Assembly (NCBI GenBank): GCA_934254925.1
Contig: CAKQMD010000001.1
Coordinates: 13,266 to 77,265 of the forward strand
Length of the DNA stretch: 64,000 nucleotides
Source: an uncultured Alphaproteobacteria bacterium
GTDB taxonomy: Bacteria > Pseudomonadota > Alphaproteobacteria > RF32 > CAG-239
Reading direction: 5' to 3'
Shown here: in pieces, positions 589-36,139 of the stretch
Position numbering within the stretch: position 1 is the first letter of the stretch
Layout: the number at the start of each line of letters is the position of its first letter
Program-made: the position numbers and the translations under genes
The notes under the pieces: generated by a model
Told to the model about the DNA's origin: nothing
The model's database searches: none
Seen by the model: the letters and a program-made list of their open reading frames with translations, nothing else

Positions 589-771
589 CTGAATGATCCT
601 TCAGTTATTTTTTTCAATATTAGCCATTTTATCGGGTTTGTCACCTAATATTTTAGCTTTTTTACATAAAAATTAATCACATGCTGCGGACGGAAAAGAA
701 ATTAAGGTTGAAAAATTGCCCCGTTTTGTATATTAAGGAAGAAGTTTTCAACTTTAGACGAGGGAAAATCC

Positions 772-1419: not shown

Positions 1420-1422
1420 GTA

Positions 1423-2538: not shown

Positions 2539-2545
2539 AACTGAT

Positions 2546-4999
2546 ATGAAGTTAGTAATTGTAGAATCTCCGGCCAAAGCCAAAACCATTAACAAGTATC
2601 TGGGCAGCGACTATAAGGTGCTGGCCAGTTTTGGCCATATCCGGGATTTACCGAGCAAAGACGGATCCGTTCTGCCCGACGAAGATTTCCGCATGAGCTG
2701 GGAGCTCAGCCCCGGCGGCAAAAAACGCCTGCAAGATATTATTAACGCACTCAAAGACTGCGACACGATCGTCCTGGCCTCCGACCCGGATAGAGAAGGA
2801 GAAGCCATTGCCTGGCATATTTTGGAAGAGCTGACTCAACGCAAAAAAATCAAAGACAAGAAAATTGAACGTGTGGTTTTTCATGAAATCACCAAATCAG
2901 CCGTGACCGAAGCCATTAAGAATCCGCGCGAAATCGATGCTAATCTGGTTTCGGCCTATTTGGCCCGGCGGGCGCTGGACTATTTGGTCGGCTTTACCTT
3001 GTCGCCGGTCCTGTGGCGGAAACTGCCAGGCTCCAAATCGGCGGGACGCGTGCAATCCGTGGCATTACGCTTGATTTGCGAACGCGAAGCGGAAATTGAA
3101 AAATTCAAAGCCGAAGAATATTGGAGTATTGACGTTGATCTGATCACCAAGACGCAGGCACTGATCCGCTCGCATCTGATGGTGCTTGACGGCAAGAAAC
3201 TCGACAAGATGGACCTAAAAAACGAAGCGGCGGCATTGGAAGCCAAAGCCAAGATCGAGGCGCAGGAATTCTCTATCTCCAACGTGGAACGCAAAAAGGC
3301 CAACCGGTATCCGGCACCGCCGTTTACCACTTCCACCCTGCAGCAGGAAGCGGCTCGCAAGCTGCGTTTTTCGGCCAAGAGAACCATGCAGGTGGCACAA
3401 AAACTTTATGAAGACGGTTTGATCACTTATATGCGTACCGATGCGGTCAACCTTTCCAAAGAAGCTTTGGAAAACGCCCGGGAAGTGATCAAAAAATATT
3501 TCGGCGACGCTTATTTGCCCAAGGCTGCCAAAGAATACAAGACAAAATCCAAAAATGCGCAAGAGGCGCACGAAGCCATTCGTCCTTCGGACCTGATGAA
3601 CACGCCGAAAAAAATGGAGACCAAACTCGACAGCGAAGCACATAAACTTTATGAACTGATCTGGAAGCGCACAATCGCCTGTCAGATGAATCCGGCGGTC
3701 TTGGACAAGGTTGCCATTGACGCTACTTCCGCTGACGGGCAGATTATGTTGCGGGCCAACGGCCAAGTCATCGAGTTTGACGGCTTTCTCAAACTCTATC
3801 AGGAAAGTCGGGACGATGCCGACGACGATGATGAAAACCGTATTTTGCCTAACGTGGAAAACGGCGAGAAAGTCGACAAAGGCGATATCTATCCCGAACA
3901 GCATTTTACAACTCCGCCTCCGCGCTTTACCGAAGCCAGCCTGGTCAAAAAACTGGAAGAATTGGGAATCGGTCGACCGTCGACTTATGCTTCGATTATC
4001 GCCGTTTTGCAGGAAAGAAAATACGTGCGGGTGGAAAAGCTGCGCTTTATTCCCGAAGACCGCGGCCGAATTGTCACCGTCTTTTTGGAAAACTATTTCA
4101 AAAAATACGTCGAATATGACTTTACCGCGCAATTGGAAGAATTCCTGGACGACGTTTCCGCCGGTGAAATGGATTGGAAAAAGCTGCTGACCGGCTTTTG
4201 GGTTAAGTTCAGCAAAAACATCGACGCCGTTCAGCCTTTGCAAATCAGCAACGTGATTGACACGATTGACGAGGTTTTGTCTTTCCACCTCTTCCCGCCC
4301 AGAGAAGACGGCAGTGATCCTCGGCTTTGTCCGGAATGCGGCAAAGGACGCCTGAGCATCAAACTCGGAAAGTTCGGCGCGTTTATCGGTTGCTCCAATT
4401 ATCCTGAATGCAAGTATACCAAGCCTCTGATCGACACCAGCGATGAAGAAGTCAGCGACAAACCGCGGCAACCTTCGCCGGAAGACAAGGTTTTGGGCGA
4501 AATGCAGGGAATGAAAATTTACCTCAAAAAGGGCCCCTACGGTTTTTATCTGCAACTGGGCGAAGACGCGACGGCTACGACAGAAAAGCCCAAGCGCTCA
4601 GCTTTGCCGAAAAACATCAGTCCTGAAGAAGTAACCCTCGAGCAGGCGGAAGTTTTGTTGTCATTGCCGAGGGACCTTGGCGACGGCATTTTGGTAAATG
4701 TCGGTAAGTTCGGCCCTTATATCAAGCAAGGCGGTAAGTCCAAGTCTTTGACCGGAGGCGACAATATTTTCAACATTACTTTGGAAAGGGCCAAGCAGAT
4801 TTTGGCCAACGTGGCCGAACGACCGGCCGGAAAAGTTTTGGGAAAAAATCCCAAAGACAAGAATGATATTGTTTTAAGCAGCGGCCGCTACGGTCCTTAT
4901 CTGAAATGCGGCAAAAACAACTATGCCCTTCCTCGGGATCTCAAAGACCGAGAGCCGACGTTGGAAGAAGCCATAAAAATTATTGAAGCAAAAAAATAG
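2546..4999 (+). CDS. topA: DNA topoisomerase I
   Basis: 817 aa with an N-terminal TOPRIM (MKLVIVESPAKAKTI...), the topoisomerase IA core (TYMRTD, GIGRPSTYA) and C-terminal Zn-ribbon repeats (CPECG..., GCSNYPECKY). Confidence 0.95.
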   Translation: MKLVIVESPAKAKTINKYLGSDYKVLASFGHIRDLPSKDGSVLPDEDFRMSWELSPGGKKRLQDIINALKDCDTIVLASDPDREGEAIAWHILEELTQRKKIKDKKIERVVFHEITKSAVTEAIKNPREIDANLVSAYLARRALDYLVGFTLSPVLWRKLPGSKSAGRVQSVALRLICEREAEIEKFKAEEYWSIDVDLITKTQALIRSHLMVLDGKKLDKMDLKNEAAALEAKAKIEAQEFSISNVERKKANRYPAPPFTTSTLQQEAARKLRFSAKRTMQVAQKLYEDGLITYMRTDAVNLSKEALENAREVIKKYFGDAYLPKAAKEYKTKSKNAQEAHEAIRPSDLMNTPKKMETKLDSEAHKLYELIWKRTIACQMNPAVLDKVAIDATSADGQIMLRANGQVIEFDGFLKLYQESRDDADDDDENRILPNVENGEKVDKGDIYPEQHFTTPPPRFTEASLVKKLEELGIGRPSTYASIIAVLQERKYVRVEKLRFIPEDRGRIVTVFLENYFKKYVEYDFTAQLEEFLDDVSAGEMDWKKLLTGFWVKFSKNIDAVQPLQISNVIDTIDEVLSFHLFPPREDGSDPRLCPECGKGRLSIKLGKFGAFIGCSNYPECKYTKPLIDTSDEEVSDKPRQPSPEDKVLGEMQGMKIYLKKGPYGFYLQLGEDATATTEKPKRSALPKNISPEEVTLEQAEVLLSLPRDLGDGILVNVGKFGPYIKQGGKSKSLTGGDNIFNITLERAKQILANVAERPAGKVLGKNPKDKNDIVLSSGRYGPYLKCGKNNYALPRDLKDREPTLEEAIKIIEAKK

Positions 5000-5189: not shown

Positions 5190-7274
5190 GTGAGCAATGC
5201 TATCAGTTTAACCGCGTCAATGCGATCGAATTTGCTGAGCCTGCAACACATTGCGGGACAAGTTGACTTAACCCAAAATCGTCTCTCCACCGGCTTAAAA
5301 ATCAACTCGGCGATCGACAATCCTTCTTCTTATTACATGGCGGTATCCTTGAACAACCGGGCCAGTGATTTGTCGGCTTTGTTAGATTCCATGGTGCAGG
5401 GGATTCAAACAATTAAGGCGGCGACCGAGGGGCTGGAGGCCGGCGCCAATTTGTTGGAACAAGCGGCGGCCACAGCAACGCAGGCCTTAGAAAATGCCTA
5501 TTTCCGCCATAAGTCCTTGGATTATTATCTGACACAAGGCTATCGCGTCATTAATTCCGAAATGAGCAGTGCCGAAATTGAAGCTTTGATGGTTGACGGT
5601 GCTAAACTGGTCTTGGCCGACGATATGGTTTTGGACGCCGGATTGCTCCTGGCCGCTGACAATATCACCATTAACGGCAACGGTCATCGCCTGAGTTATG
5701 GAGGCACGGATGATTTGTTGTCCGTTTCTGGACAGAACACGACAATTACCAATATTAAACTGGATTATATTAACGCTTCCGGAGGAGCGGCAATTGACGT
5801 CACGGGATCGGCAGACGTTTCTTTGATTGAGATTGAAGCCCAGGGTAATAAAGTTTACGGAGTCCATTGCGGCAAAGGCGGCAAAATAACTCTGGACAAC
5901 AGTCTGGGGATTAAGGCCAGCGGTATCGGATCGCATAACTTGGTTAACGGCGACGTTGAACTTTATGACGGCAAAGGCAATACCCAAGCGATTATTGACC
6001 AGATCGGCGAGAATGGTTTGGCGGCGACGGCGGCGCATCAGTTTTATGCCCCGGGAGTTGCCAAAGACGACGCCAATTTCGGTCAGGGCCAATGGTATCT
6101 TCCTTCCATTGGCGAGCTGATGGAGCTTTACGGCACGGATGCCGATGCCATTACCGAAGGTAGCGGAACTTCCGGCGCAATCGGCAACAATAAAAACAAA
6201 ATTAACGAGGCGTTGAGTATTTTAAAAAGACACGCTGCGGCGGAAACACTGCAAAACGAATGGTATTGGTCGTCTTCCGAACATAAGGACGACACTTCTT
6301 TTATCCTTAATATGAGTAACGGTTTCCGCAGTCCCAATACAAAGTCGACCGAAAACGGCAGCGGTCTTCATGTTCGCTGTTTTCAGCTTCTGGAAAATCG
6401 TTTTGATCCGGCTAAAGGCAGTCCGAAAATCGGCGACGTGATGTACTCTGACCTGAGTTATGGCCCCGCCGACGCCTATGACAGCAGCAAAACCGCCGTG
6501 GGAGTGGTGACTTGGATTTCGGAAGACAGAAGATCGGCCAAAATCGTCAATTTAAAAGACCTGCGTTTCAGTTCTCATGATCAGGCGGGAAACTTTAATT
6601 CCGACAAGCCTTATGACGCCTCAGGAAGCATGGTTTCCACCAGCCGCTGGACAACGGCCAACGCCGGAAACACCAATATTACAAACATAACGGATTACGG
6701 TTATTCGCAACTGATGTCTGCCGCGCAATCGGGCGGAAAAATTACGGTCAGCAACACTAATTTGACAATGAATAAGAACGAGGCTTATCTTGTCGGTGCA
6801 ATTTCTTCCTACAATGAAATCCTTGCACAATACGATCTCCTGATCAAAGACAGTTCTTACAAGGGCATTAACCTGTTGCAAGAGCAGGACCTGACCGTGG
6901 TCTTTAACGAAAAACGTTCGGCAAAATTGTCGGTGCAAGGCAAAGACGCCTCCTCTCAAACCTTAGGCTTGACAACGAATGATTGGCAAAATCAAGGCGA
7001 CGTTGCACAGTCTTTAAGCGAGATTGCCGCCGCTCTCAATCAAATCAGCCAAATGTCATCAGAACTTGGAAACTGTTATTCGCTCATCACCACGCGTGAG
7101 GATTTTACGCAGAATTTGATCAATATTTTAACCGAGGGTTCCGATAAGTTGACTCTTGCCGATATGAACGAGGAATCGGCCAATATGCTGGCCCTGCAAA
7201 CACGGCAACAGCTGGCAGTCAATTCGCTGTCCCTCGCCTCGCAGGCCAGCCAGTCGATTTTGAAACTGTTTTGA
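5190..7274 (+). CDS. flagellin-domain protein with large non-canonical central insert (beta-helix-like segment + DUF1566/Lcl-like domain)
   Basis: GTG start with RBS aaaaggag 6 nt upstream. The N-terminus (LQHIAGQVDLTQNRLSTGLKINSAIDNPSSYY...) and C-terminus (ANMLALQTRQQLAVNSLSLASQASQSILKLF) match flagellin D0/D1 helices. The middle ~450 aa carry repeated NITINGNG, TITNIKLDYINASGG and VTGSADVSLIEIEAQGN turns, then the WYLPSIGEL, WYWSSS and VRC motifs of DUF1566. Confidence 0.75.
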   Translation: MSNAISLTASMRSNLLSLQHIAGQVDLTQNRLSTGLKINSAIDNPSSYYMAVSLNNRASDLSALLDSMVQGIQTIKAATEGLEAGANLLEQAAATATQALENAYFRHKSLDYYLTQGYRVINSEMSSAEIEALMVDGAKLVLADDMVLDAGLLLAADNITINGNGHRLSYGGTDDLLSVSGQNTTITNIKLDYINASGGAAIDVTGSADVSLIEIEAQGNKVYGVHCGKGGKITLDNSLGIKASGIGSHNLVNGDVELYDGKGNTQAIIDQIGENGLAATAAHQFYAPGVAKDDANFGQGQWYLPSIGELMELYGTDADAITEGSGTSGAIGNNKNKINEALSILKRHAAAETLQNEWYWSSSEHKDDTSFILNMSNGFRSPNTKSTENGSGLHVRCFQLLENRFDPAKGSPKIGDVMYSDLSYGPADAYDSSKTAVGVVTWISEDRRSAKIVNLKDLRFSSHDQAGNFNSDKPYDASGSMVSTSRWTTANAGNTNITNITDYGYSQLMSAAQSGGKITVSNTNLTMNKNEAYLVGAISSYNEILAQYDLLIKDSSYKGINLLQEQDLTVVFNEKRSAKLSVQGKDASSQTLGLTTNDWQNQGDVAQSLSEIAAALNQISQMSSELGNCYSLITTREDFTQNLINILTEGSDKLTLADMNEESANMLALQTRQQLAVNSLSLASQASQSILKLF

Positions 7275-7705: not shown

Positions 7706-10293
7706 GCGGCTTCTCCCAAAACAATTTCAATGTTAAAGCTTTTGCCTTCAACGTTCTTTTCTTCCACGAGTTCGATTTTCTCGGCAGCAATCGACGAAGC
7801 TGCCGCAATATCCTTAATCATCGCCCGGGCTTTCTTTAAATTAGCCTCGCGGCCGGCAATTTTCAAGGTTTCCAACGGCCAACGCATGTTTTTCTGCGCC
7901 TGGGACTTTGCTCCCCGCACTTCCGAAAGAATTTCAATCATGACATTGATGGCGTCTTCCAGCTGATTGTTTTTGAGAACGCTTTCAAAATCCGCAACTC
8001 TCGGCCATGCCGTCCGATGAACGGAACCGGCACCGGGATAAAAGACCGACCACATCTCCTCAGTGACATAGGGCATGAACGGCGCAAACAACAGCAAAAA
8101 GCTGCGGAAAGAATAAAGCAGGCCGGCCAGGGCCGAACGGCGTTCAGCAGTATCTTCCTCACCATAAGCGCGGGATTTTACCAACTCAATGTAATAATCG
8201 CAGAACTTCCAGAACAAATCTTCGGTATTTTGCAGCGCCGAAGAATAATCATAGTCTTCAAAAGCTTTGGTAGAGCGCTCGATCACCTTGGCAATCTGCT
8301 CTAGCATCGCGATGTCGGCGGCTTCGGTAATGTCTGAAACCTGCAAGGCAGAGGCCTCAGCCCCGGCGCGATCCAAAATGGTTTTTACAAAATTTCCGGC
8401 ATTGAAAATTTTGGTAACCAGTTTTTTGCCGATCGTAAACAACGACGGGTCATAAATCGTATCGGCGCCCAATTTGGCCTTGCCCGCCCAATAACGGACG
8501 GCATCAGCGGAATATTCGACGATCAGATTTTCCGGGGTAACCACATTGCCCTTGGACTTGCTCATTTTTTTGCGGTCGGGATCAACGATAAAACCGCTGA
8601 CGGCAATATGTTTCCAGGGAATTTCCTGTTCATGGAACCAAGCTTTCACAATGGTATAAAAAGCCCAAGTTCTGATAATGTCATGCGACTGCGGCCGCAA
8701 ATCCGCCGGGAAAAGGGCCTTGTGTCGTTTGTTGTCAATGCCCCAGTGCGAGCTCAGCTGCGGCGTGAGCGACGAAGTGGCCCAAGTGTCCATCACGTCG
8801 GGTTCGCCGATAAAACCGTTTGGCTGGCCGCGCTGATCTTCCCGATACCCCTTGGGCGCGGTGATCATCGGATCAACCGGCAACTGGCTTTCGTCAGCAT
8901 AAAGCGGATTTTCATAATCGGGATTTCCTTTGGCATCAAGCTTATACCAGACCGGGAAAGGCACGCCGAAGAAACGCTGGCGGCTGATGCACCAATCCTG
9001 ATTCAGGCCTTCAACCCAATGTTCGTAACGCGACAGCATATAAGCCGGGTGCCACTGAATTTTACGGCCCTGGGCCAAAAATTCTTCTTTATGGTTCAAA
9101 ATGTCGATAAACCATTGACGGGAGGGAACAAACTCTATGGGATAGTCCCCTTTTTCATAAAACTTCACATCATGGACAATGTCTTTGAAGCCTTTGACGG
9201 CGCCCTCGGCCTCCAAAATCTCAATCGTTTGCTTGCGAGCGGCGGGAATGCTTAACCCGACCAGTTTGGCATAATTGGCACAACCTTTCTCCGGATCAAC
9301 GCAGGCAAAGGCGCCCTTGCCGTAATCGACATCCAAAATCTTCCCTTGTTTGGAGATGATCTGCTTCATCGGCAGGCCGGACTTTTTCCACCATTCCACG
9401 TCTTGAATATCGCCGAAAGTACAAACCATCATAATACCGGTTCCTTTGTCCGGTACGGCATGTTCGGACGGGCAGATCGGCACCGGGGCATAAAAACCGG
9501 GCGTAATGGCAGTCTTGCCGAAAAGATGCTGATAGTGCTTGTCATCCGGATGTGCCACTACGGCAATGCAAGCAGCAACAAATTCGGGACGCGTAGTGGA
9601 AATGACAAAAGGCGTTCCGTCTTCGACCTTAAATTCCAGATCATAAAACTTGGAAGCCATCTCGCGGTCTTCAACCTCCGCCTGAGCAATGGCCGAATTA
9701 AAGGTAATGTCCCACATTCCGGGCATTTCGCGGTTATAAACCACGCCTTTTTTCACCAAATCCAAAAACGACAACTGCGAGGTACGGCGAGAATTGTCGT
9801 CTATCGTGGCATATTTATACCGCCAGTCATAGGAATGCCCCACGGATTTGAACAGGTCTTCAAATACTTTTTCATCATTGCCGGCCAAAAGATTGCAGGC
9901 CTCAATGAAGTTTTCCCGAGAGACTTCTTTTTGCGGTCCCTGGTCTTTTTTAGTATCATCATGAAAAGGTTTCCACCCTTCAACGTAAGGAACGTTGGAA
10001 TCGCATTTGATGGCATAGTAGTTTTGTACCCGACGCTCCGTCGGCAGACCGTTGTCATCCCAACCGATGGGATAAAAAATGTTTTTGCCAAGCATACGAT
10101 TATAGCGTACCTGAATGTCCGTCTGCGTATAGCTGAACACATGCCCGATATGCAAAGAACCAGATACCGTCGGCGGCGGTGTATCTACCACGAAGCTATT
10201 GTCACGGGATGCCGTTTCGTCATAAAGGTAGGTTCCGTTGTCCTGCCAGTTCTTATTCCACTTTTGTTCAATTGCTTTATGATCGTATGCCAT
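7702..10293 (-). CDS. valS: valine--tRNA ligase
   Basis: 863 aa with class-I HIGH (PPPTVSGSLHIGH) and KMSKS (KMSKSKGN) motifs. Has an editing domain and the C-terminal coiled coil typical of ValRS. Confidence 0.95.
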   Translation of the reverse strand: MAYDHKAIEQKWNKNWQDNGTYLYDETASRDNSFVVDTPPPTVSGSLHIGHVFSYTQTDIQVRYNRMLGKNIFYPIGWDDNGLPTERRVQNYYAIKCDSNVPYVEGWKPFHDDTKKDQGPQKEVSRENFIEACNLLAGNDEKVFEDLFKSVGHSYDWRYKYATIDDNSRRTSQLSFLDLVKKGVVYNREMPGMWDITFNSAIAQAEVEDREMASKFYDLEFKVEDGTPFVISTTRPEFVAACIAVVAHPDDKHYQHLFGKTAITPGFYAPVPICPSEHAVPDKGTGIMMVCTFGDIQDVEWWKKSGLPMKQIISKQGKILDVDYGKGAFACVDPEKGCANYAKLVGLSIPAARKQTIEILEAEGAVKGFKDIVHDVKFYEKGDYPIEFVPSRQWFIDILNHKEEFLAQGRKIQWHPAYMLSRYEHWVEGLNQDWCISRQRFFGVPFPVWYKLDAKGNPDYENPLYADESQLPVDPMITAPKGYREDQRGQPNGFIGEPDVMDTWATSSLTPQLSSHWGIDNKRHKALFPADLRPQSHDIIRTWAFYTIVKAWFHEQEIPWKHIAVSGFIVDPDRKKMSKSKGNVVTPENLIVEYSADAVRYWAGKAKLGADTIYDPSLFTIGKKLVTKIFNAGNFVKTILDRAGAEASALQVSDITEAADIAMLEQIAKVIERSTKAFEDYDYSSALQNTEDLFWKFCDYYIELVKSRAYGEEDTAERRSALAGLLYSFRSFLLLFAPFMPYVTEEMWSVFYPGAGSVHRTAWPRVADFESVLKNNQLEDAINVMIEILSEVRGAKSQAQKNMRWPLETLKIAGREANLKKARAMIKDIAAASSIAAEKIELVEEKNVEGKSFNIEIVLGEAA

Positions 10294-10486: not shown

Positions 10487-10561
10487 GCCGCTGTAGCTCA
10501 GTGGTAGAGCACGTCATTGGTAATGACGGGGTCGCAAGTCCGATTCTTGCCAGCGGCACCA
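10487..10561 (+). tRNA. tRNA-Thr (anticodon GGT)
   Basis: Cloverleaf folded by eye: acceptor gccgctg/cagcggc, D-arm gctc/gagc, anticodon stem cgtca/tgacg with loop ttGGTaa, T-arm gcaag-tccgatt-cttgc, encoded CCA. Confidence 0.85.
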
Positions 10562-10680
10562 TTTTTGATAACGCACCGTTAAAGGTGCTTTTTTTGTATG
10601 TATTCAAGGCTTTCAATCAGTCCGATTTTGAGAATTTTTAATTTGGCGATTTTTGATGATTTATCGGACTTTTATGTTTT
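10556..10680. repeat. att-like repeat copy A (overlaps tRNA-Thr 3' end) of the tRNA-Thr cassette array
   Basis: gcaccatttttgataacgcaccgttaaaggtgcttttttt ... agtccgattttga ... ttatcggact. Terminator hairpin GCACC-N6-GGTGC plus T-run, and an 8-9 bp inverted repeat agtccgat / atcggact. Confidence 0.75.
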
Positions 10681-10683
10681 TAA

Positions 10684-11241
10684 CTATTTCAAATTATATG
10701 GTGCATCTGATTTATTTTGGACTTCTATTCCTGTCTCAAAACTTTCAACAAACTCCCAATGACCGTTCTCCAATATAAAATGAAAGCAGTGACAATTTTT
10801 TATCCCTTCTACTTTATATCCAGCACACCAACATAATGCGCGGGTAATTCCTCCATGAGAGGCTATAGCAATATTATTAAAAGTGGATGATTTAACTATA
10901 CTTTCAAGAAAAGTTTTGACTCTTTCAAAGGTCTCATTGATACGTTTTTGCGTTTCAGAAGTATCATTATACCAAAAGCCGAAAGCAGCTTCGCACAAAG
11001 CATCATCTGTAATTATATCTATATTACTATATTTTTTAGCAATAATATGAGCTGTATCAACAGCACGTTTTAATGGACTTGAATAAATGACTTCTAAAGA
11101 TTTATCTGACAGAAATTCAGATAATTTTTGAGCTTGTTTTTTCCCTATAGTTGTCAAATTGGCACTAGGCTTTCTTCCTGCAATACCTAGCTTATTACCG
11201 ACGCTTTGTCCATGTCTAAAAAAATAAAAATGTTTTTTCAT
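10684..11241 (-). CDS. histidine phosphatase superfamily (phosphoglycerate-mutase-like) protein, cassette 1
   Basis: The RHGQS catalytic motif (FYFFRHGQSVGN) is near the N-terminus. I prefer the internal start 11241, which has a GGAG RBS. AT-rich (~35% GC) compared with flanking valS. Confidence 0.65.
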   Translation of the reverse strand: MKKHFYFFRHGQSVGNKLGIAGRKPSANLTTIGKKQAQKLSEFLSDKSLEVIYSSPLKRAVDTAHIIAKKYSNIDIITDDALCEAAFGFWYNDTSETQKRINETFERVKTFLESIVKSSTFNNIAIASHGGITRALCWCAGYKVEGIKNCHCFHFILENGHWEFVESFETGIEVQNKSDAPYNLK

Positions 11242-11344
11242 ATTGGTCTCCATATTAAGCATTTATGTTATTGGTTAATTCGTATATTTTTAGTAAATGC
11301 TTTTATTCTAAGGCCTAAATTTACAAACTTATCATTATTTTCAT

Positions 11345-11490
11345 TCCGATAATTGCATAGTATCGCGCACCATTTTTTAGAATGCACCTTTTGAGGTGCT
11401 TTTTTTGTATGTATTTCAAGCTTTTCAGAGAGTCCGATTTTGAGGATTTGGGAATTTGACTATTTGAAATAATTATCGGACTTTTTATGC
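11345..11490. repeat. att-like repeat copy B of the tRNA-Thr cassette array
   Basis: tccgataattgcatagtatcgcgcaccattttttagaatgcaccttttgaggtgcttttttt ... agtccgattttga ... ttatcggact. Mimics the tRNA-Thr T-arm and acceptor 3' half plus the downstream flank. Confidence 0.75.
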
Positions 11491-11504
11491 TATAAGTGCT
11501 ACAA

Positions 11505-11540
11505 TAAAAAACGACCTTAGATGCAAATCCAAGGTCGTTT
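11505..11540 (-). terminator. rho-independent terminator of cassette-2 gene (minus strand)
   Basis: aacgacctt-N12-aaggtcgtt 9-bp stem, followed on the minus strand by tttttt. Confidence 0.5.
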
Positions 11541-11555
11541 CTATGACATATTTCT

Positions 11556-12206
11556 TTACAAATCTCTGAGTAGTTTCTCATAGATTTCTTGTATGCCCTT
11601 CTTCCAGTCACCATATTTTTTGCTGACGACATGTTCACCGGGAAAATTCTGAATCGATATTTTCTCAACATTTGTGGGTCTCCACTCTGCTCTTCTTTCT
11701 TCAAAATCAACTTTGAAGTACAAGAAACAAGCTTTGATATATGCAAGAGTCTTTTTACCACATTGCCGCGTTCTAAGATATTCTTTTTCTGTATGGCAAG
11801 CCATATCTCCTAAATATAGAGGCTGTTTGTGCGCCCAATCATCTACTACGGCAATCAAGGTATTTTGCACTCTGGCTGGCAGATTCAACATCGATAATGG
11901 CAAATAATAAGCCAAAGGATTACCACATTCATCCCTTTCATCATATTTCACCGCAGGCTGAGGAATGCTTTCTCCCTCATGGAAATTAATATCCATTTCC
12001 AACCATAATTCAGATATTTTATCCTTAAATACCTCTTCTTTATACTTGTTGGATGTAACAGATAAAATGATGGTGTTTTTCTGATTTTCCAGAATTACTG
12101 ACGCATTTTTATCGACCTCATGCACAATTTCTTTAATAACACCACACCAAAGTGATTGGCTGTTGCGAGACCACTTTTTAACATAAAATGTAATTTTTGT
12201 TGTCAT
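11556..12206 (-). CDS. hypothetical protein, cassette 2; C-terminal half resembles RNA polymerase alpha-CTD-like helix-hairpin-helix DNA-binding fold
   Basis: 216-aa ORF, AT-rich. The segment LSMLNLPARVQNTLIAVVDD...EKEYLRTRQCGKKTLAYIKA matches the alpha-CTD pattern L.LSVR..N.L......DL....E.L...N.G.KSL.EI by eye. No other recognisable domain. Confidence 0.45.
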   Translation of the reverse strand: MTTKITFYVKKWSRNSQSLWCGVIKEIVHEVDKNASVILENQKNTIILSVTSNKYKEEVFKDKISELWLEMDINFHEGESIPQPAVKYDERDECGNPLAYYLPLSMLNLPARVQNTLIAVVDDWAHKQPLYLGDMACHTEKEYLRTRQCGKKTLAYIKACFLYFKVDFEERRAEWRPTNVEKISIQNFPGEHVVSKKYGDWKKGIQEIYEKLLRDL

Positions 12207-12397
12207 AATTTTTTATTTTTATTGTTAATATTTCAAAAATAAAAAGCACTACTGAAACAAAGATTGATTACTCAATAATTGGACAAAATAATACTTTTTG
12301 ATGATAATGATATATCATATTTTTATAGTCACCGCAAGCACTATTTTGGACGAAATATTGTTATTTTCACTATAAACTTAAATTCTTCTTGAGAAAT

Positions 12398-12590
12398 TCA
12401 ATTTTCCTACTCAAAAGCTTAAACTCATCATGGTTTTTAGTCCGATAATTGCATAGCATCTCGCACCATTTTTGATAATGCACCCGTTGAGGTGCTTTTT
12501 TTGTATATATTCCAAGGCTTGCAAAGAGTCCGATTTTAGATGTTTTTAATTTGAAGATTTTTGTAACCTTATCGGACTTTTTATTTTTTT
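12398..12590. repeat. att-like repeat copy C (full-length unit with 5' module) of the tRNA-Thr cassette array
   Basis: caattttcctactcaaaagcttaaactcatcatggtttttagtccgataattgcatagcatctcgcaccatttttgataatgcacccgttgaggtgcttttttt ... agtccgattttaga ... ttatcggact. Confidence 0.75.
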
Positions 12591-12662
12591 TATTTACTTT
12601 ATTTTCATTTGAATATATAAGATTGAGTGTGAATTTATAATTTTGTTTAACAATATAAAAGT

Positions 12663-13259
12663 ATGATTATGGAGATAAATTTTATTACTTCCAATAAAGG
12701 AAAGATAGCGGCTTTGAAGCGTTTTTTAGCTAATGACGGGCGTTTGGATATTAAAGTTAATCAAGTTCAGGTGGAAATTATTGAACCTCAACTCAATAAT
12801 ATTGCGGATGTTTCAAAATATAAAGCCTTGGAGGCTTTTAAAATATTAAAAAAGCCCGTACTTGTTGAAGACGGAGGCCTGGTTATTGAGGCTTTAGATG
12901 GTTTTCCCGGACCATATACTAAATATGTTTTATCAACAATTGGGGTTGATGGCATACTTAGATTAATGCACGGAGAAAATAATCGAGGCGCAAAATTTGT
13001 TAGCTTTGCAACTTTTGTCGAACAAGACGGAACCATACGCCAATTTGAAAGATTTGGTGATAATTTTGAAATTTCCAATGAGCGAAAACCTATCATTCAT
13101 CCTGAAGCATGGTCTGATTTGTGGCAAGTGATGTATATGAAAAATTATGGAAAAATGCTTTGCGAGTTTTCAAAACAAGAAATTATTGACCATACTGAAA
13201 AATCGCAAACTTCAGGAAGTTTGCAACAATTTGCAAAGTGGTTTATGGAAAAATATTAA
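12663..13259 (+). CDS. Ham1/RdgB-family non-canonical purine NTP pyrophosphatase-like protein, cassette 3
   Basis: The N-terminal ITSNKGKIAALK and the VEDGGLVIEALDGFPGPYTKY segment match the ITPase motifs (SN.GK..E ... EDSGL.vdAL.G.PG.YS). 198 aa, AT-rich. Confidence 0.65.
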   Translation: MIMEINFITSNKGKIAALKRFLANDGRLDIKVNQVQVEIIEPQLNNIADVSKYKALEAFKILKKPVLVEDGGLVIEALDGFPGPYTKYVLSTIGVDGILRLMHGENNRGAKFVSFATFVEQDGTIRQFERFGDNFEISNERKPIIHPEAWSDLWQVMYMKNYGKMLCEFSKQEIIDHTEKSQTSGSLQQFAKWFMEKY

Positions 13260-13316
13260 GGATTATCTTTTATAGGCTGGGTATAAACGCTCAGCCTTAA
13301 TTTATTTTAGATATTT

Positions 13317-13595
13317 TTTCAATTTTCCTACTTAAAAGCTTAAAATTATCATAGTTTTTAGTCCGATAACTGCACAGTATGTAAATTCCCATTGCTTTGC
13401 AATGGGCCCCTTTCGTCCCGTAAGGTTCAAACTTCGCTTACCGCTCGTTTTCACCAACTATCGACTCCGCGCACCATTTTTAAAAAAGCACCTTTCAAGG
13501 TGCTTTTTTGTTATGTAAACCAAACCTTTCAGTCAGTCCGCTTTTGAGTTTTTTTATAAATGCACTTTTTCGCTGATTTATCGGACTATTGACCA
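13317..13595. repeat. att-like repeat copy D (with an 88-bp hairpin-containing insertion) of the tRNA-Thr cassette array
   Basis: Same 5' module and core as copy C. The extra segment 13381-13468 (cccattgctttgcaatggg palindrome) is inserted between ...gcacagtat and cgcgcaccattttt. Confidence 0.7.
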
Positions 13596-13703
13596 AAACG
13601 TTGTAGACCTTAGACCTCATATCCCTGTCCAATAATTGTACCCCAAGAAAATTGACGGGAACGGCTTTGTGAAATCATTCAAAGGACCGATCAAGCCCGA
13701 ATG

Positions 13704-14703: not shown

Positions 14704-15081
14704 CTATTTGTAGACCCAAAACTTTTGCAAAGGAAAAGAAAACAGCGGAATTGTCAGGACAATGACCAAAACCGTCGCCCAATAGGGCCAGAGCATTTTG
14801 ACGCCGGCCCAGGTCAGAGCTTCGCTGTACAAAAACATCAGCAGGCTCAACAGTAGATATTTGCCAAACATGCCCGTATTGCCGCGTCTCAAACAAAAGG
14901 TGACGCGCATTTGCCCAAAATATCCGGCGACAATGCTGCAACCATATCCCACCAATGTCGAACTTAAGGCCTCACCGCTGAAAAAATAAGCTAGGTTTGC
15001 CGCCAACAAATACACCAGACTGGCCAGGCCGCCGATTATCAGATATTTTACGATTTGTCGTTTAAACAAGCCGTTCATCAT
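14704..15081 (-). CDS. GtrA-family small polytopic membrane protein (lipid-linked sugar translocation)
   Basis: 125 aa with 4 TM helices and a KYLIIGGLASLVYLL-type N-terminus typical of GtrA. Its start overlaps the upstream gene (ATGA). Confidence 0.55.
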   Translation of the reverse strand: MMNGLFKRQIVKYLIIGGLASLVYLLAANLAYFFSGEALSSTLVGYGCSIVAGYFGQMRVTFCLRRGNTGMFGKYLLLSLLMFLYSEALTWAGVKMLWPYWATVLVIVLTIPLFSFPLQKFWVYK

Positions 15082-17669
15082 TTCTTGAACTCTTGCAGAT
15101 AAAAGAACAAGGCAAAGTCGTGCCAGGCATGCGGCCGGTTATGATCCCCCCAAGTCAGAGGATATACCTGCGACGAAATGTCGGGAATGCGATAACTCGG
15201 AGCATTAAGGGCGTCATAATGGGCCATGTCCACCTTAAGGTAGGGATAAAAATCACTCTTGGGCGCAAAAGGCATAAAGTTCGGCGCGCGAGAAGCCTTA
15301 AACAGTTTTCGGGCCTGTCTGGCATATTCTACCCGCGAGGCAAAGCGGGGCTCGGACAGTTCCGCATTCTTGGGCTTGTCGGCAAACCACAACAACCGGT
15401 AATAATCCAGCCTGTCAGAAGGACAATTGCCAAACTGCGCGGCCAGGTCTTCGCGTCCGTATTCCTTCAGGGCAAACTGCAACCATCGGGTCTGATACAG
15501 ATTTTGCGGCTGACCGTCCGTCAGTCCTTGCAGGCAACCGTCAACGGCAATGCGTTTGGCTTCGGCCACGGCACGGTTGACTGTCATTCGGTTCGGCGTT
15601 TCGAGCAGACTGTTGAGATAGACGATTTGCCCCAGGTTGTCGGGTTCATGAGGATTTCTGATTCCGTCATAAACGGCGGTGCGCGTTTTGATCCAATCGG
15701 AAATCAGATCGACCTGCCCCGTTTGTTTTAAGAAATAGCCGATCAAAGCGCTGTCGCGATACCAGACATCGTTCGGACGGGAATGATATTCGTGCAAACG
15801 CGAGTACACCTTGCCGTCAATAACGGAAAACATAATTTCCTGATACAAGATTTTCAGAAGGTCGGGGTATTCATATTCGCTGAAATCAGGCAGGTTCATC
15901 GGCAAAGAGGTACCGGGAACATATTTCTTGTTTTGTTCCTCATCGGTGTACCATACGCCGGTTTCGTCTTCGACGATTTCCGTCCGGTCGCCGTTTTCAA
16001 AAACCAGGCGAACCTTGTAGAGATGAGGCAGAACGGTTGCGTATTTTATGTCGGCGAATTTTTTAACGACTTCTCCGGTCTTGAAATCCTCCAGCCGATC
16101 ATTTCTGAAAACGATTTTCCGGCGGTTGCCGAGCCCGAAATAGTAAAGGTTGTCTGTCAGTTTTTCCAGGTTAGCGTTTTGAAAAACCATCAGATTGAGA
16201 TGCCGATTACGGTGTGCTCGCAGCAACGTCTTTTTCAAGTTGATCAGGTCGGGATCTTCCATTTGGCTGCGGGAGGCATGGCGGTTGTCAAAGACAAAAT
16301 TGTCCGCAACTTTGAGTTCCGAGGCAACCAAAAAGGTTAAATATCCGGTCAAAACCACGAGCAAAAGCAAAATCCCCCAGTAAAGCTTTTGCCACACGCC
16401 TTTAAGACTGTCCGCGCTCAGGACGAACAACGAAGCGATGAAGAGGTTGTAAGACGGCGAATATAATTCCTGTTCATGGGCGCCATAAAGGCTGTGAAGA
16501 ATAAACAAAAAGGCCAGGCCGCCGAAAAGAGCATAAACATCGGCCAATTTGAACCATTTGGAAAGGGAAAACAGCAAAGGCAGCAACAAAAGATAGGCCC
16601 ACAAGACTTGTTTGGGCAAATCGGACAAATGAGTGTCTTCTCCCCAAAGCTGCAGGAAAAAGTTTCGTACATAAAGCAGAATGCCGTTTTGATTCGGAAC
16701 GTTAACGGAATGAGGTTCCTCGACCATGATTTCCCTTATCATCCAAGCGAGGTCCGCTTGTGTGTATCCCGGGTACATGTGGTGCTGCCAAGACAAAAGC
16801 AGGCTGATCGACAGCAAAAACAGCAGTCCGAGCTTTAGGCAAAAAACGGCGGCCTGTCCAAAAGTCAGTTTATTTTGCCGATACAGCAGCACAAACAAAA
16901 TAAACAGGCAAATACCGTACAAGACGATATTGGTAATCGTGGTGGAAAAAGCCACAAGAGCCAGCAGCAGCTGTGGCAACAGATTCAGACGAGGATTTCG
17001 ATATAAGCGGGAAAAACAAAGCAAGGTTATCAGAATCGTCGTTTGCGAAAAGATGAACGTTTCGATAATCAGTGCCGCATGCAAAACTTCGGAAAAACTG
17101 ACGGTAAGAAGCAAAGTTCCCAACAAGACGGTCGTTCGGGAAGCAACAAACTCCCGCAGCCAGAGATAAAACAGGCTCATGTTAAAAGCGGCAACAAAGA
17201 CGGTAAAGACATGCAGATGGCCATAATCGGCATTGAGAGGCATGGTCAGATGAACCAGCGACTGCCACAAGATTATGAAAAAGGGATGCACCTTGATGCG
17301 GTAATGGTTGGCATCGGGCATCAAGAGGTCATCGGCGACGCGGAGCTGGTCCGTTCCGTAATAAAAATCCATGACCGGCGCCACACTAAACCTGGTGCTG
17401 CAAAGGTTGAAAACAAACAAAGACAGTAGGAAAACAGCTGCGGCAATCAGAGCATCCCACCGGTTGAAACGGTTGACAAGCTTGCCCCCCAAACCACTCT
17501 GGTACAACCAGTAAAGAAATAAAAAAGGCAGAGGATTCAAAATCAGGCCGCTGATTTTATAAACCAAGCAGCCGGCAGCCAAAAACAAAAAAACAAGCAA
17601 GACTTTAAGATCAGGCAAAGCCGGCCAATTAAAAGAAGGCAAATTTTTCAGACGGGGCAAAAGGGACAT
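15078..17669 (-). CDS. large polytopic membrane protein with C-terminal soluble domain; candidate GT-C-type glycosyltransferase
   Basis: 863 aa. The N-terminal ~480 aa is very hydrophobic with at least 12 predicted TM helices. The C-terminal ~380 aa is a globular domain. The only basis for the call is its position between the UbiA-type phosphoribosyltransferase and GtrA genes. Confidence 0.4.
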   Translation of the reverse strand: MSLLPRLKNLPSFNWPALPDLKVLLVFLFLAAGCLVYKISGLILNPLPFLFLYWLYQSGLGGKLVNRFNRWDALIAAAVFLLSLFVFNLCSTRFSVAPVMDFYYGTDQLRVADDLLMPDANHYRIKVHPFFIILWQSLVHLTMPLNADYGHLHVFTVFVAAFNMSLFYLWLREFVASRTTVLLGTLLLTVSFSEVLHAALIIETFIFSQTTILITLLCFSRLYRNPRLNLLPQLLLALVAFSTTITNIVLYGICLFILFVLLYRQNKLTFGQAAVFCLKLGLLFLLSISLLLSWQHHMYPGYTQADLAWMIREIMVEEPHSVNVPNQNGILLYVRNFFLQLWGEDTHLSDLPKQVLWAYLLLLPLLFSLSKWFKLADVYALFGGLAFLFILHSLYGAHEQELYSPSYNLFIASLFVLSADSLKGVWQKLYWGILLLLVVLTGYLTFLVASELKVADNFVFDNRHASRSQMEDPDLINLKKTLLRAHRNRHLNLMVFQNANLEKLTDNLYYFGLGNRRKIVFRNDRLEDFKTGEVVKKFADIKYATVLPHLYKVRLVFENGDRTEIVEDETGVWYTDEEQNKKYVPGTSLPMNLPDFSEYEYPDLLKILYQEIMFSVIDGKVYSRLHEYHSRPNDVWYRDSALIGYFLKQTGQVDLISDWIKTRTAVYDGIRNPHEPDNLGQIVYLNSLLETPNRMTVNRAVAEAKRIAVDGCLQGLTDGQPQNLYQTRWLQFALKEYGREDLAAQFGNCPSDRLDYYRLLWFADKPKNAELSEPRFASRVEYARQARKLFKASRAPNFMPFAPKSDFYPYLKVDMAHYDALNAPSYRIPDISSQVYPLTWGDHNRPHAWHDFALFFYLQEFKK

Positions 17670-36032: not shown

Positions 36033-36107
36033 TCCGGCTTAGCTCAGCGGTAGAGCAATCGGCTGTTAACCGATTGGTCGCCTGTTCGAATCAGGCAGCC
36101 GGAGCCA
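36033..36107 (+). tRNA. tRNA-Asn (anticodon GTT)
   Basis: Acceptor tccggct/agccgga, anticodon stem atcgg/ccgat with loop ctGTTaa, T-arm cctgttcgaatcagg, CCA encoded. Confidence 0.85.
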
Positions 36108-36115
36108 ATAAAAAA

Positions 36116-36139
36116 AGCACCTGTCAAGGTGCTTTTTTT
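36116..36139 (+). terminator. rho-independent terminator of the tRNA-Cys/tRNA-Asn transcription unit
   Basis: agcacct-gtca-aggtgct hairpin followed by ttttttt. Confidence 0.6.

Follow-up and report, generated by a model that had tools for sequence, protein, structure and literature searches.

A tRNA-anchored array of single-gene cassettes bounded by a composite repeat points to a lineage-wide cassette platform in uncultured Alphaproteobacteria

Three AT-rich single-gene cargos lie downstream of a tRNA-Thr(GGT) gene in the window (the whole 64-kb stretch of DNA analysed here), bounded by four copies of a composite repeat made of an L and an R module. The same layout, tRNA-R-(cargo-L-R)n, was recovered at 72 loci in at least 65 species-level genomes, and because no recombinase gene stands alongside, the system resembles an integron built from different parts. 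We favour, with modest confidence, the reading that the locus exemplifies a tRNA-anchored platform for gene cassettes that extends across the lineage and whose units have moved by exchange within the repeat, most likely through a trans-encoded protein. The system appears not to have been described before and would be a new kind of integron-like or tandem-accretion platform.

The locus is flanked by valS and a PfkB/ribokinase-type gene (Pfam), and its GC content of 26–39%, against ~44–56% in the flanks, agrees with the original prediction of AT-rich cargos. The three cargos lie on either strand, in an array anchored at the tRNA 3′ end, as had been proposed. A pattern scan of the 64 kb placed GCACCATTTTT-N6-GCACC-N6-GGTGCTTTTTT exactly at 10556, 11367, 12463 and 13471 and at no further site with 3 mismatches permitted (shuffles expect 0), confirming the four predicted copies between the tRNA and the ribokinase-type gene; 10 of the 11 window copies of AGTCCGAT also fall at the array locus (1.6 expected). 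The tRNA ends in GCACCA and carries AGTCCGAT in its T-loop at 10537–10544, and the R module of copy A is joined straight onto its 3′ end in an attL/attI-like manner. Self-alignment of the four copies with MAFFT returned a common repeat, interrupted in copy D by an insertion that corresponds to part of a structured mini-element of ~200 nt, in inverted orientation. The predicted inverted repeat AGTCCGATTTTGA...TTATCGGACT is found in all four copies, with the left arm of D altered to AGTCCGCT, and the hairpins of copies A, B and C score as intrinsic-terminator-like, as had been proposed. A fourth box beyond copy D corresponds to the end of a long R variant found in 11 copies, where it mostly lies 42 nt past R. 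The earlier description of the 216-aa cargo as alpha-CTD-like is weakly supported, its sole PDB sequence matches being to RpoA alpha-CTD (E 0.004–0.3). Elsewhere in the window, the GCACC-N6-GGTGC hairpin alone also serves as terminator of tRNA-Asn at 36110, and a DprA gene occupies 1423–2538.

Table 1. Features of the array in window coordinates. Copy limits are from repeat search and MAFFT alignment, and copy scores from a covariance model.
Feature	Position	Strand	Basis or detail
tRNA-Thr(GGT), array anchor	10487–10561	+	ARAGORN; Rfam tRNA 70.9 bits
Copy A	~10537–10680	+	Covariance model match 10537–10675, 112 bits
Copy A, R module	10556–10680	+	GCACCA, T5, hairpin 10573–10588, box2 10619–10626, inverted box3 10663–10670
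Cassette 1 cargo, histidine phosphatase (His_Phos_1), 192 aa	10684–11262	-	Pfam
Copy B	11301–11493	+	Covariance model 184.9 bits
Copy B, L module	~11303–11372	+	Box1 degenerate (ATTCCGATAA); pseudo tRNA 3′ end
Copy B, R module	11367–11487	+	Hairpin 11384–11399, box2 11431–11438, box3 11475–11482
Cassette 2 cargo, 216-aa protein	11556–12206	-	Pfam family: none
Copy C	12396–12589	+	Covariance model 197.9 bits
Copy C, L module	12396–12468	+	Box1 12439–12446
Copy C, R module	12463–12583	+	Hairpin 12480–12495, box2 12527–12534, box3 12571–12578
Cassette 3 cargo, Ham1-like non-canonical NTP pyrophosphatase, 198 aa	12663–13259	+	Pfam
Copy D (last and most divergent)	13318–13595	+	Covariance model 141.4 bits
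Copy D, L module	13318–13380	+	Box1 13360–13367; insertion parts L from its CGCGCACCA end
87-nt insertion within copy D	13381–13467	+	Alignment
Copy D, R module	13471–13590	+	Hairpin 13488–13503, box2 mutated to AGTCCGCT, box3 13580–13587
Fourth box (CCCTGTCCAATAA)	13623–13635	+	32 nt past copy D R-module match

The composite repeat measures ~190 bp, of which 70 nt form L (a conserved arm, a AGTCCGATAA box, and a pseudo tRNA 3′ end closing in GCACCA) and 120 nt form R (T5, the terminator hairpin, and a pair of AGTCCGAT boxes in inverted orientation at a distance of 44 bp). The boxes hardly vary across genomes (box1 in 77/94 copies, box2 in 80/97, box3 in 77/97) and their spacing is tightly held: 24 nt from box1 to GCACCA in 59 of 63 L copies, 64 nt from GCACCA to box2 in 65 of 89 copies, and 44 nt from box2 to box3 in 69 of 74, the last across a spacer of only 62% mean identity that contains phased T-tracts. 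The hairpin is kept through covariation rather than sequence. Box2 is oriented as box1. Each cargo is enclosed by a 12-nt inverted pair (AATTATCGGACT) made up of box3 in R and box1 in L. Taken together, near-invariant boxes, fixed spacings and a covarying hairpin are evidence, from sequence conservation, for a protein-DNA architecture with a putative binding protein. The original prediction that each repeat mimics the tRNA 3′ half holds for the shared AGTCCGAT and GCACCA only; between these two the sequence is different and 5 nt longer, and no T-stem/acceptor pairing can form there. Fic cassettes lack an R module and adjoin a truncated L at AGTCCGATAATTGC, so cassettes do not all share one unit structure. 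Read on the antisense strand, L has a coding-like pattern that the platform model does not explain, and a search of 5.8 billion proteins found the corresponding peptide inside no larger protein.

A pattern scan of one genome per species yielded 72 stretches from 65 assemblies, taken as locus blocks of 8 kb, and nearly all of the source assemblies are titled uncultured gut or rumen Alphaproteobacteria. These stretches contain 171 repeat copies by the covariance model, and 96 L and 122 R modules by nhmmer. Wherever the block extends far enough the array starts at a tRNA, with its copies in one orientation. In 49 cases R stands behind a tRNA (Thr-GGT 39, Leu-TAA 5, Thr-CGT 2, Phe-GAA 2, Leu-CAA 1). 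Several genomes (L005, L026 and L046) show tRNA-R without any cassette after it, and one cassette pair occurs behind tRNA-Thr-GGT in L045 and behind tRNA-Thr-CGT in L052. All five array-carrying tRNA species end in GCACCA and have nothing else in common, and the internal tRNA-like half is itself conserved non-tRNA sequence; the original proposal that each event regenerated attL and attR from a tRNA-half core therefore fails as worded. The 98 cassettes (median length 946 bp, 31% GC) encode 128 ORFs, 69 on the minus and 59 on the plus strand relative to the array. These ORFs fall into 81 clusters, of which 55 are singletons, and their range includes Fic, NERD, HNH, C5 and N6 methyltransferases, AAA_14, ankyrin, His_Phos and Ham1. 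The comparison genomes are almost all short-read MAGs in which order across 190-bp repeats may occasionally be mis-assembled, but key cassette arrangements recur in several independent assemblies.

Exchange of cassettes between species is evident at the nucleotide level. Cassette 1 DNA (10674–11302) is identical at 629 of 629 positions to a cassette in another species (L074), and cassette 2 DNA (11487–12395) at 909 of 909 to the first cassette of the L081 array. Both lie in the other species in swapped order, with different flanks and behind a tRNA differing at 4 positions, which indicates that cassettes move as units and that integrase-less units have moved recently. Among strains of that other species, both the tRNA-proximal cassette and the His_Phos allele vary, and within one species the His_Phos allele has been swapped for one 5.6% divergent beside an ankyrin cassette that is still 99% identical. 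The original prediction had set active capture against a dispersed repeat or a fixed locus; in the 64 kb the repeat is confined to this one locus, and in relatives the cassettes vary from genome to genome and from strain to strain around conserved repeats. Homology of the identical cassettes breaks in two conserved blocks, consensus 45–79 and 97–123, with upstream limits at 96/97 or 119 and downstream limits at 54, 66 or 79; these positions are the edges of the two longest near-invariant blocks (~27–35 nt). The 17 nt between the blocks (consensus 80–96) assort independently of both neighbouring cassettes, and patches within R have been swapped, leaving mosaic R modules (L023 versus L074). As the breakpoints are not unique and the 17 nt are linked to neither cassette, the classical serial integration at a single site that had been envisaged is not demonstrated.

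No recombinase domain was identified among 50 window ORFs scanned against Pfam, in agreement with the predicted lack of an integrase in cis; the set took in the seven long ORFs of the locus and its surroundings, without exception, and, outside 7–17.7 kb, 40 of 43 ORFs with a length of 140 aa or more, the other three measuring 142–153 aa. The 98 cassettes likewise yielded no tyrosine recombinase, in a screen that was not exhaustive since it missed a large one in the adjacent L042 island. Among the 72 loci, an integrase beside the tRNA was present only in two unrelated islands, both between tRNA and R: a P4-type integrase island in L074 with a perfect 45-bp tRNA direct repeat, and the L042 island with a 579-aa tyrosine recombinase and a 19-nt core. 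Their integrases were rejected as the cassette enzyme on account of other arm motifs and longer tRNA cores (45 and 19 bp). The ~200-nt structured mini-element lies between tRNA and R in at least 11 other genomes, flanked by an 18–20-nt tRNA duplication, and two small MITE-like insertions interrupt repeat copies. The repeat itself is absent from IMG/VR, PLSDB and INPHARED.

In the platform as we see it, an R module is resident behind a tRNA gene with a GCACCA end, and its terminator hairpin is accompanied by a pair of inverted AGTCCGAT boxes whose spacing is fixed. Cassettes are of the form R-cargo-L, and in the array each L adjoins the next R. In classical terms tRNA-R resembles attL or attI, every internal L-R junction a hybrid attP or attC with core and arm-type boxes over ~190–250 bp, and the last L, followed by the native terminator, attR. 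Recombination inside the repeat would allow cassettes to be gained, lost, replaced and swapped between species as units. It would most likely be carried out by a protein encoded at another site, a recombinase or a DNA-binding protein, with the AGTCCGAT boxes as its recognition sequence. Such a dedicated protein would bind the boxes, cassettes would pass through a circular intermediate, and new ones would probably enter beside the tRNA. Homologous exchange and gene conversion between conserved repeat blocks may add a further layer of shuffling, and the hairpin could act as a transcriptional insulator of each cassette. Of the original proposals, integron-like capture by a recombinase encoded elsewhere is the reading that the data fit best, although no such recombinase was found.

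A possible but less probable explanation is that the cassettes derive from old serial integrations and now move only by homologous recombination or gene conversion after uptake or conjugation, with no dedicated recombinase. The breakpoint pattern, at the edges of the two blocks and with an unlinked 17 nt and mosaic R modules, is that expected of RecA-type exchange in short conserved blocks and not of a single-site recombinase, and replacement of the His_Phos allele beside a nearly unchanged ankyrin neighbour and the lack of a recombinase in cis point the same way; the window also encodes DprA, which is weak evidence because DprA is widespread. However, blocks of ~27–35 nt are near the lower limit for RecA-mediated exchange, and homology by itself accounts neither for the retention, in 65 species, of three or four 8-bp boxes at exact spacings despite drift of the sequences between them, nor for the presence of one module behind five tRNAs sharing only GCACCA. 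Insertion of a cassette into a junction, unlike replacement, would still require a circular intermediate. On the mode of exchange as such, the data fit either a trans-acting site-specific recombinase or homologous exchange and could not separate the two.

It is improbable that the cassettes are eroded integrase-bearing islands, comparable to tycheposon or ssrA-island tandems, whose repeats are fossil attL and attR sites without current movement. The tRNA is a genuine integration hot spot, as seen in the L074 and L042 islands and in the mini-element with its tRNA duplication; the terminal copy in L021 consists of L and a true tRNA 3′ half, and L antisense resembles a fossil C-terminal coding end. 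Against erosion, different species have cassettes with 100% identical DNA in a different order, a decaying att core would be much shorter and less well conserved than the repeat, the L peptide occurs in no larger protein, and independent erosion would not yield one 190-bp unit with fixed spacings in 65 species. Less probable again, and very unlikely in our view, is that the units are non-autonomous mini-elements of a Tn7-like or other site-specific transposon family homing downstream of tRNAs, with AGTCCGAT as transposase sites. Binding-site-like boxes at each end (several in R, one in L), the inverted box3/box1 pair around every cargo, and single-orientation arrays downstream of a conserved gene would suit such elements, but no transposase and no target-site duplication were seen in the 72 loci or the window, box2 is oriented as box1, and each insertion would have to duplicate ~125 nt comprising the pseudo tRNA end, hairpin and box2. 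That the repeat is a REP/MITE-like element or generic tRNA terminator with ordinary genes between copies, as the tRNA-Asn hairpin and the MITE-like insertions might suggest, is contradicted to the point of being scarcely credible by 4/4 window copies at one locus, oriented arrays from a tRNA in other genomes (within reach of the 8-kb blocks), and AT-rich intervening DNA that differs between genomes.

Among known systems, the tmRNA gene is an integration hot spot for the ssrA islands of Dehalococcoides. Tycheposons encode a recombinase of the tyrosine or large serine type and have partial tRNA copies of ~40 nt at their flanks, and the Prochlorococcus islands use tRNA hot spots that include tRNA-Thr-GGT (bioRxiv 10.1101/2020.12.28.424599). 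In both cases successive integrations push older elements outward and cargo lies between partial tRNA copies, as here, but those elements are kilobases long, come with a tyrosine or serine recombinase of their own, often together with replication genes, and leave irregular remnants, whereas the present units are regular, integrase-less and bounded by a conserved non-tRNA composite repeat. Membership of the tycheposon type was rejected, as the cassettes hold no recombinase and the internal repeats have no more than AGTCCGAT and GCACCA in common with the tRNA. The window locus is also no classical P4-type tRNA island, since it does not pair an integrase at one end with a perfect direct repeat of the tRNA 3′ part at the other; the separate L074 island does.

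Minimal mobile elements and intergenic mosaic repeat arrays of Neisseria exchange genes in cassette-like fashion between conserved flanks, by homologous recombination after uptake. They share mosaic repeat units with the present system, but rely on flanking core genes or short dispersed repeats rather than a tRNA-anchored ordered array with a fixed composite repeat. The pdif modules of Acinetobacter plasmids, thought to be Xer-dependent, have 28-bp XerC-6-XerD sites in alternating orientation. They too are small one- or two-gene modules with short recombination sites in many contexts, and depend on a recombinase encoded elsewhere (host XerC/D), but the arrays described here are chromosomal, tRNA-anchored and directly oriented, and a dif-like core (...CATAA-N6-TTATG...) matched 0 of 181 junctions by a crude regular expression from which the clade's own dif may differ.

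Site-specific accretion of integrase-less elements at tRNA genes is known from streptococcal CIMEs and IMEs beside ICEs. The likeness extends to tandem arrangement at a tRNA 3′ end, internal junctions that are hybrid att sites, and elements without an integrase that depend on supply in trans; here, the tRNA-R-(cargo-L-R)n layout is found in 49 tRNA-adjacent cases with recombinase-less cassettes. The streptococcal repeats are, however, att sites of an identifiable cognate ICE or IME integrase, and no integrase element with matching att sites was found in the 98 cassettes, IMG/VR, PLSDB or INPHARED. The present units are also much smaller, consist of single genes, are far more numerous and diverse, and are separated by a 190-bp composite instead of a short tRNA-derived core.

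From integrons the system differs in having no IntI and in using a tRNA 3′ end as its platform instead of attI beside intI. attC sites are imperfect palindromes of 57–141 bp, whereas the repeats here are ~190-bp direct units with sequence-conserved boxes, and the attC core RYYYAAC-N35-125-GTTRRRY matched only 1 of 181 junction blocks (regular expression, both strands). Integron cassettes are mostly promoterless and co-oriented with a platform promoter, but here cargo lies on either strand, a terminator hairpin precedes each cassette, and breakpoints fall at no single fixed position. The resemblance to integrons and CALINs nevertheless covers ordered arrays of mostly single-gene cassettes of ~1 kb with diverse cargo often of unknown function, a structured, recombination-site-like repeat closing each cassette, and a fixed platform site at one end. 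As in CALINs, which are attC clusters without an integrase, the arrays have no recombinase in cis, and as in integrons, the platform-proximal cassette, here the one next to the tRNA, is among those that differ between strains of one species.

The original prediction had placed four repeat copies (A to D) and three single-gene cargos behind tRNA-Thr, and this arrangement is borne out by pattern search, repeat finding and alignment (see table), with valS and a PfkB-type kinase gene flanking the array. The core GCACCATTTTT-N6-GCACC-N6-GGTGCTTTTTT matches exactly at 10556, 11367, 12463 and 13471 and, with up to three mismatches tolerated, nowhere else in the 64-kb window, the chance expectation being none; with the full pattern confined to the array within this window, we reject a dispersed repeat. 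The window holds 11 copies of the octamer AGTCCGAT (1.6 expected), ten of them inside the array locus. The cargos are AT-rich relative to the core, as predicted, with a GC content of 26–39% across the array versus ~44–56% outside. Describing the 216-aa protein as alpha-CTD-like is weakly supported, as its PDB sequence matches are all to the RNA polymerase alpha C-terminal domain but are weak (E 0.004–0.3), and it has no Pfam family.

Features of the window and of comparison loci from related genomes (L-numbers)
Feature	Locus	Position	Strand	Remark
dprA	window	1423-2538		
Topoisomerase I gene	window	2546-4999		adjoins dprA
684-aa flagellin	window	5220-7274	+	
tRNA-Thr(GGT)	window	10487-10561	+	ARAGORN and Rfam
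T-loop of tRNA-Thr(GGT)	window	10535-10545		TCCGATT
Repeat copy A	window	to ~10680		fused to tRNA; repeat finding, alignment
Histidine phosphatase cargo	window	10684-11262	-	between copies
Repeat copy B	window	~11301-11493		repeat finding, alignment
216-aa protein cargo	window	11556-12206	-	between copies; no Pfam family
Repeat copy C	window	~12397-12589		repeat finding, alignment
Ham1-like pyrophosphatase cargo	window	12663-13259	+	between copies
Repeat copy D	window	~13318-13595		87-nt insertion at 13381-13467; repeat finding, alignment
L modules with antisense frame	window	11303-11372, 12396-12468, 13318-13380	antisense	
Fourth box	window	13623-13635		
863-aa membrane protein	window	15078-17669	-	
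tRNA-Asn with hairpin	window	36107-36150		
Phage-like cluster	window	~48480-58120	-	
YhdP-like gene	window	60752-63997		chromosomal
Mini-element	L010	5167-5387		
~85-nt insertion	L064	3434-3710		
~85-nt insertion	L020	7288-7499		
~85-nt insertion	L036	4357-4567		
R module with 66-nt duplication/insertion	L074	~8684-8870		array-oriented
Integrase island	L074	11185-15713		ena:ERZ27239276:k119_137979; P4-type integrase (387 aa), resolvase, small ORFs
Recombinase island	L042	375-6830		array-oriented; 579-aa tyrosine recombinase (...SLRHTF...VVGH...Y), serine recombinase, three other proteins

The repeat proves to be a composite of two modules when a second genome (L047) is compared and seven copies are combined into a covariance model. 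The L module (~70 nt) comprises a conserved arm TCAATTTTCCTACTCAAAAGCTTAAAATCATCAT, box1 AGTCCGATAA, a 14-nt stretch TTGCAYAGTATCKC and GCACCA, and the R module (~120 nt) begins with T5, six variable bases, a hairpin (usually GCACC-N6-GGTGC) and a T-run, followed by box2 AGTCCGATTTT, a 36-nt spacer and an inverted box3 TTATCGGACT. A fourth box extends R in 11 copies including the terminal window copy, mostly at an offset of 42 nt after R and in the window at 32 nt. Box sequences are largely kept (box1 in 77 of 94 copies, box2 in 80 of 97, box3 in 77 of 97), as are their distances: 24 nt from box1 to GCACCA in 59 of 63 L copies, 64 nt from GCACCA to box2 in 65 of 89, and 44 nt from box2 to box3 in 69 of 74. 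The box2–box3 spacer has a mean identity of just 62% and contains phased T-tracts. The hairpin is maintained by compensatory changes, with double changes at all five stem pairs, and alternative stems such as TCCGCC/GGCGGA occur. The proposed mimicry of the tRNA 3' half holds insofar as AGTCCGAT and GCACCA, the sole sequence common to both, recur in the repeat, but what separates them has 5 nt more than in the tRNA and cannot fold into T-stem and acceptor stem. The T-loop of tRNA-Thr(GGT) has C at position 55 (TCCGATT), where a TTCGAAT-type loop is near-universal, in every such gene in the loci, as well as in a tRNA-Gly in L003, and its AGTCCGAT octamer is also the box motif of the repeat. A tRNA-Asn gene ending in GCCA elsewhere in the window is followed by a GCACC-N6-GGTGC-T7 hairpin (AAAAAAGCACCTGTCAAGGTGCTTTTTTT) with neither boxes nor cassettes. 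Neither the repeat nor the 87-nt insertion nor the mini-element described below matches a family in Rfam, where only tRNAs passed threshold.

Among 69 distinct copies from the various genomes, 61 keep a reading frame open on the antisense strand of L (consensus ...KWCEILCNYRTNFYDDFKLLSRKIE...). The frame stops 24–44 codons past an opening TGG codon and shows conservative, coding-like substitutions (D/E, F/Y, K/R). It has no conserved start codon, and a search of 5.8 billion proteins returned only four ORFs of 38–77 aa and no larger protein with the L peptide; likewise, ORFs of at least 80 codons in the loci did not match an L-peptide profile beyond open frames spanning L modules themselves. 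These searches gave no support to reading L as the tail of some larger gene, an integrase for instance. We conjecture that the frame may be a fossil C-terminal coding end, retained through overlap with recombination signals.

Two kinds of small insertion also occur in the arrays. A structured mini-element of ~160–220 nt (RNA fold z = -4.9 in L010) lies between tRNA and R in at least 11 genomes (loci L010, L006, L016, L020, L024, L027, L036, L044, L045, L053, L055 and L057). It is flanked by an 18–20-nt duplication of the tRNA 3' end, starts with a strong bidirectional terminator and holds an inverted copy of the host tRNA T-arm that co-varies with the host tRNA; the 87-nt insertion in window copy D corresponds to part of it in inverted orientation. 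The second, ~85 nt long with conserved ends AACTTCT...GTAGCGGCGC, splits box2 of R at an identical position in three genomes and resembles a box-targeting MITE.

Scanning a single genome per species for a relaxed form of the core pattern yielded 72 stretches from 65 assemblies, with source titles nearly all referring to uncultured Alphaproteobacteria in gut samples of humans, ruminants or other animals (including 'Acetobacter sp. CAG:977'). These stretches hold 171 covariance-model matches, or 96 L and 122 R modules when counted with nhmmer, always laid out as tRNA-R-(cargo-L-R)n in a single orientation with up to six junctions per 8 kb. R follows a tRNA in 49 cases (39 Thr-GGT, five Leu-TAA, two Thr-CGT, two Phe-GAA and one Leu-CAA), and four assemblies have arrays at two different tRNAs. 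The common feature of these tRNAs is the 3' end GCACCA; AGTCCGAT is missing from the ordinary T-loops of the Leu, Phe and Thr-CGT tRNAs. Because tRNA-R occurs with no cassette behind it in some genomes (L005, L026, L046), R is a resident part of the site. Terminal copies consist of L with a native terminator (as in L052) or L with a divergent R (as in window copy D). Searches of IMG/VR (two patterns), PLSDB and INPHARED gave no match to the repeat, and a phage or plasmid origin is therefore rejected.

The 98 cassettes delimited by these repeats have a median length of 946 bp (range 208–3845) and a GC content of 31%. Their 128 ORFs of at least 70 aa (69 on the minus and 59 on the plus strand) form 81 clusters, 55 of them singletons. 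Recognisable products include Fic, His_Phos, ankyrin repeats, NERD nuclease, HNH endonuclease, AAA_14/DUF4143, SAM methyltransferase, and C5 and N6 DNA methyltransferases with a DUF6996 partner, and the cargo is largely of defence and accessory type (Fic, NERD, HNH, methyltransferases, restriction-modification). No recombinase is among the recurrent recognisable families. Fic cassettes lack an R module and adjoin a truncated L at AGTCCGATAATTGC.

Look-ups by exact protein sequence also located the His_Phos and 216-aa proteins of the window in another genomic setting; those for valS and Ham1 returned the window's own contig only, and the ribokinase-type flank had no match with either of two alternative starts. 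The 216-aa cassette is identical to its counterpart in L081 over 909/909 nt and the His_Phos cassette to that in L074, a locus of the same other species as L081, over 629/629 nt, in backgrounds with unrelated flanking genes and a tRNA that differs at four positions. L081 reads 685-aa gene, tRNA-Thr, R, [216-aa], L-R, [His_Phos], L-R, [ankyrin], L-R, the two shared cassettes standing in reverse of the window order. The expected variability of cassette content between related strains is also observed: where L081 has the 216-aa cassette, L074 has one for restriction-modification. L074 also has a 4.5-kb integrase island adjoining the tRNA and a His_Phos allele 5.6% divergent from that of L081, yet the adjacent ankyrin cassettes are 99% identical. 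Cassettes recur with different neighbours (Fic at eight loci, ankyrin at five, several pairs), and one pair lies behind tRNA-Thr-GGT in L045 and behind tRNA-Thr-CGT in L052. The risk of assembly artefacts is limited because key arrangements recur in several independent assemblies.

The identity limits of cassettes shared between differing contexts were mapped onto the repeat consensus. Identity starts upstream at consensus 96/97 (hairpin 3' arm) in three families and at 119 in one, and ends downstream at 54, 66 or 79, inside AGTCCGAT...GCACCATTTTT. Consensus 80–96, the intervening 17 nt with N6, GCACC and the loop, is linked to neither neighbour, and tRNA-adjacent copies in two species have the loop GTTAAA irrespective of the next cassette. 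Exchange therefore takes place in at least two conserved blocks, consensus 45–79 and 97–123, which fits either homologous exchange in short identical stretches or a multi-site system. Serial integration at one site, as originally proposed, is not sustained in the form of a single fixed crossover point, given that the 80–96 segment follows neither neighbour. Crossover in the T-loop is also rejected as a general mechanism, firstly because an internal pseudo 3' half cannot rebuild a tRNA and secondly because the Leu, Phe and Thr-CGT tRNAs lack AGTCCGAT. Patches inside R may differ between otherwise identical junctions (L023 versus L074). In L074, as in L075, L077 and L079, the R after His_Phos has a 66-nt internal duplication or insertion that starts at the hairpin 3' arm and is absent in related strains such as L023.

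Consistent with the predicted lack of an integrase, Pfam detected no recombinase domain in 50 window ORFs. The set covers 40 of the 43 ORFs that reach 140 aa outside 7–17.7 kb, all seven long ORFs at and around the locus, and three others. Tyrosine recombinases in the other loci were seen only in separate islands using the same tRNA (L074, L042), the 579-aa enzyme of L042 having escaped a first screen by phmmer and motif regex. The L074 island is an ordinary genomic island between tRNA and cassette array; a direct repeat of the 3' part of tRNA-Thr, perfect over 45 bp, marks its two ends, and it carries GGTGCTACA arm repeats; that of L042 has a 19-nt core (a tRNA 3' copy) at its end before the R module, and ATGTACC repeats. 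Neither contains AGTCCGAT boxes, and L has no demonstrable kinship with the P arm in L074, where a search of 260 nt gave 1.8 bits (E 0.04). Small serine recombinases in or near arrays L002, L026, L042 and L074 were discounted as sporadic, inconsistently placed and absent from the window.

Other window genes include dprA, whose product mediates recombination of incoming single-stranded DNA and hints at most that the organism may take up DNA. Downstream of a GtrA-like gene lies that of a multi-pass membrane protein outside any Pfam family, and a flagellin has an unusually long central region. A compact phage-like cluster followed by the YhdP-like gene encodes a nozzle, Phage_capsid_2 capsid, T7-type scaffold, head-tail connector, 3TM holin and cell-wall hydrolase, with no recognisable replication or integrase genes, and may be a defective T7-like prophage or capsid-only element.

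The array architecture matches the product of tandem accretion of elements that lack an integrase; the tRNA end would then act as attL, internal junctions as hybrid attP-like sites and the array end as attR. Invariant boxes at fixed distances, with drifting and apparently bent DNA between them, argue for a bound protein complex, and the mosaic breakpoints argue for a substantial contribution of homologous exchange. We lean cautiously towards the reading that combines the two, a cassette platform served in trans. Homologous exchange alone is the less likely reading, though a serious alternative; it would account for the mosaic breakpoints but would not explain why the boxes and their spacing are kept. 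Tentatively, the platform served in trans could be a previously undescribed functional analogue of the integron with a dedicated putative recombinase encoded elsewhere in the genome. Such an enzyme would recognise the AGTCCGAT boxes of the ~190–250-bp composite site, and circular single-gene cassettes would enter behind any GCACCA-ending tRNA gene with a resident R. A Xer module is rejected on a crude pattern search for a dif-like core, with hits at 0/181 junctions.

Integrons are the textbook route by which bacteria stockpile and exchange single genes; to our knowledge other routes to an integron-like outcome are rare, and those that exist are instructive. Here, a clade of poorly known uncultured gut bacteria keeps exchangeable cassette arrays behind tRNA genes. 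Should there be a dedicated enzyme, the arrays would represent a site-specific recombination system of a new kind, acting on a long modular site; otherwise, short portable homology blocks would yield integron-like modularity through general recombination. Either way, the repeat provides a simple sequence handle on the flexible gene pool of these genomes in metagenomes. The literature searched gave no account of such a tRNA-anchored cassette system. In function it parallels an integron or CALIN. Membership of the integrons themselves is rejected given the absence of IntI, an attC signature at 1/181 junctions and mixed cargo orientation; the repeat is unrelated to attC and no recombinase lies beside the arrays. 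Tycheposon islands (bioRxiv 10.1101/2020.12.28.424599) and streptococcal CIMEs, unlike the present arrays, have identifiable elements or helpers, but are nonetheless their nearest mechanistic relatives.
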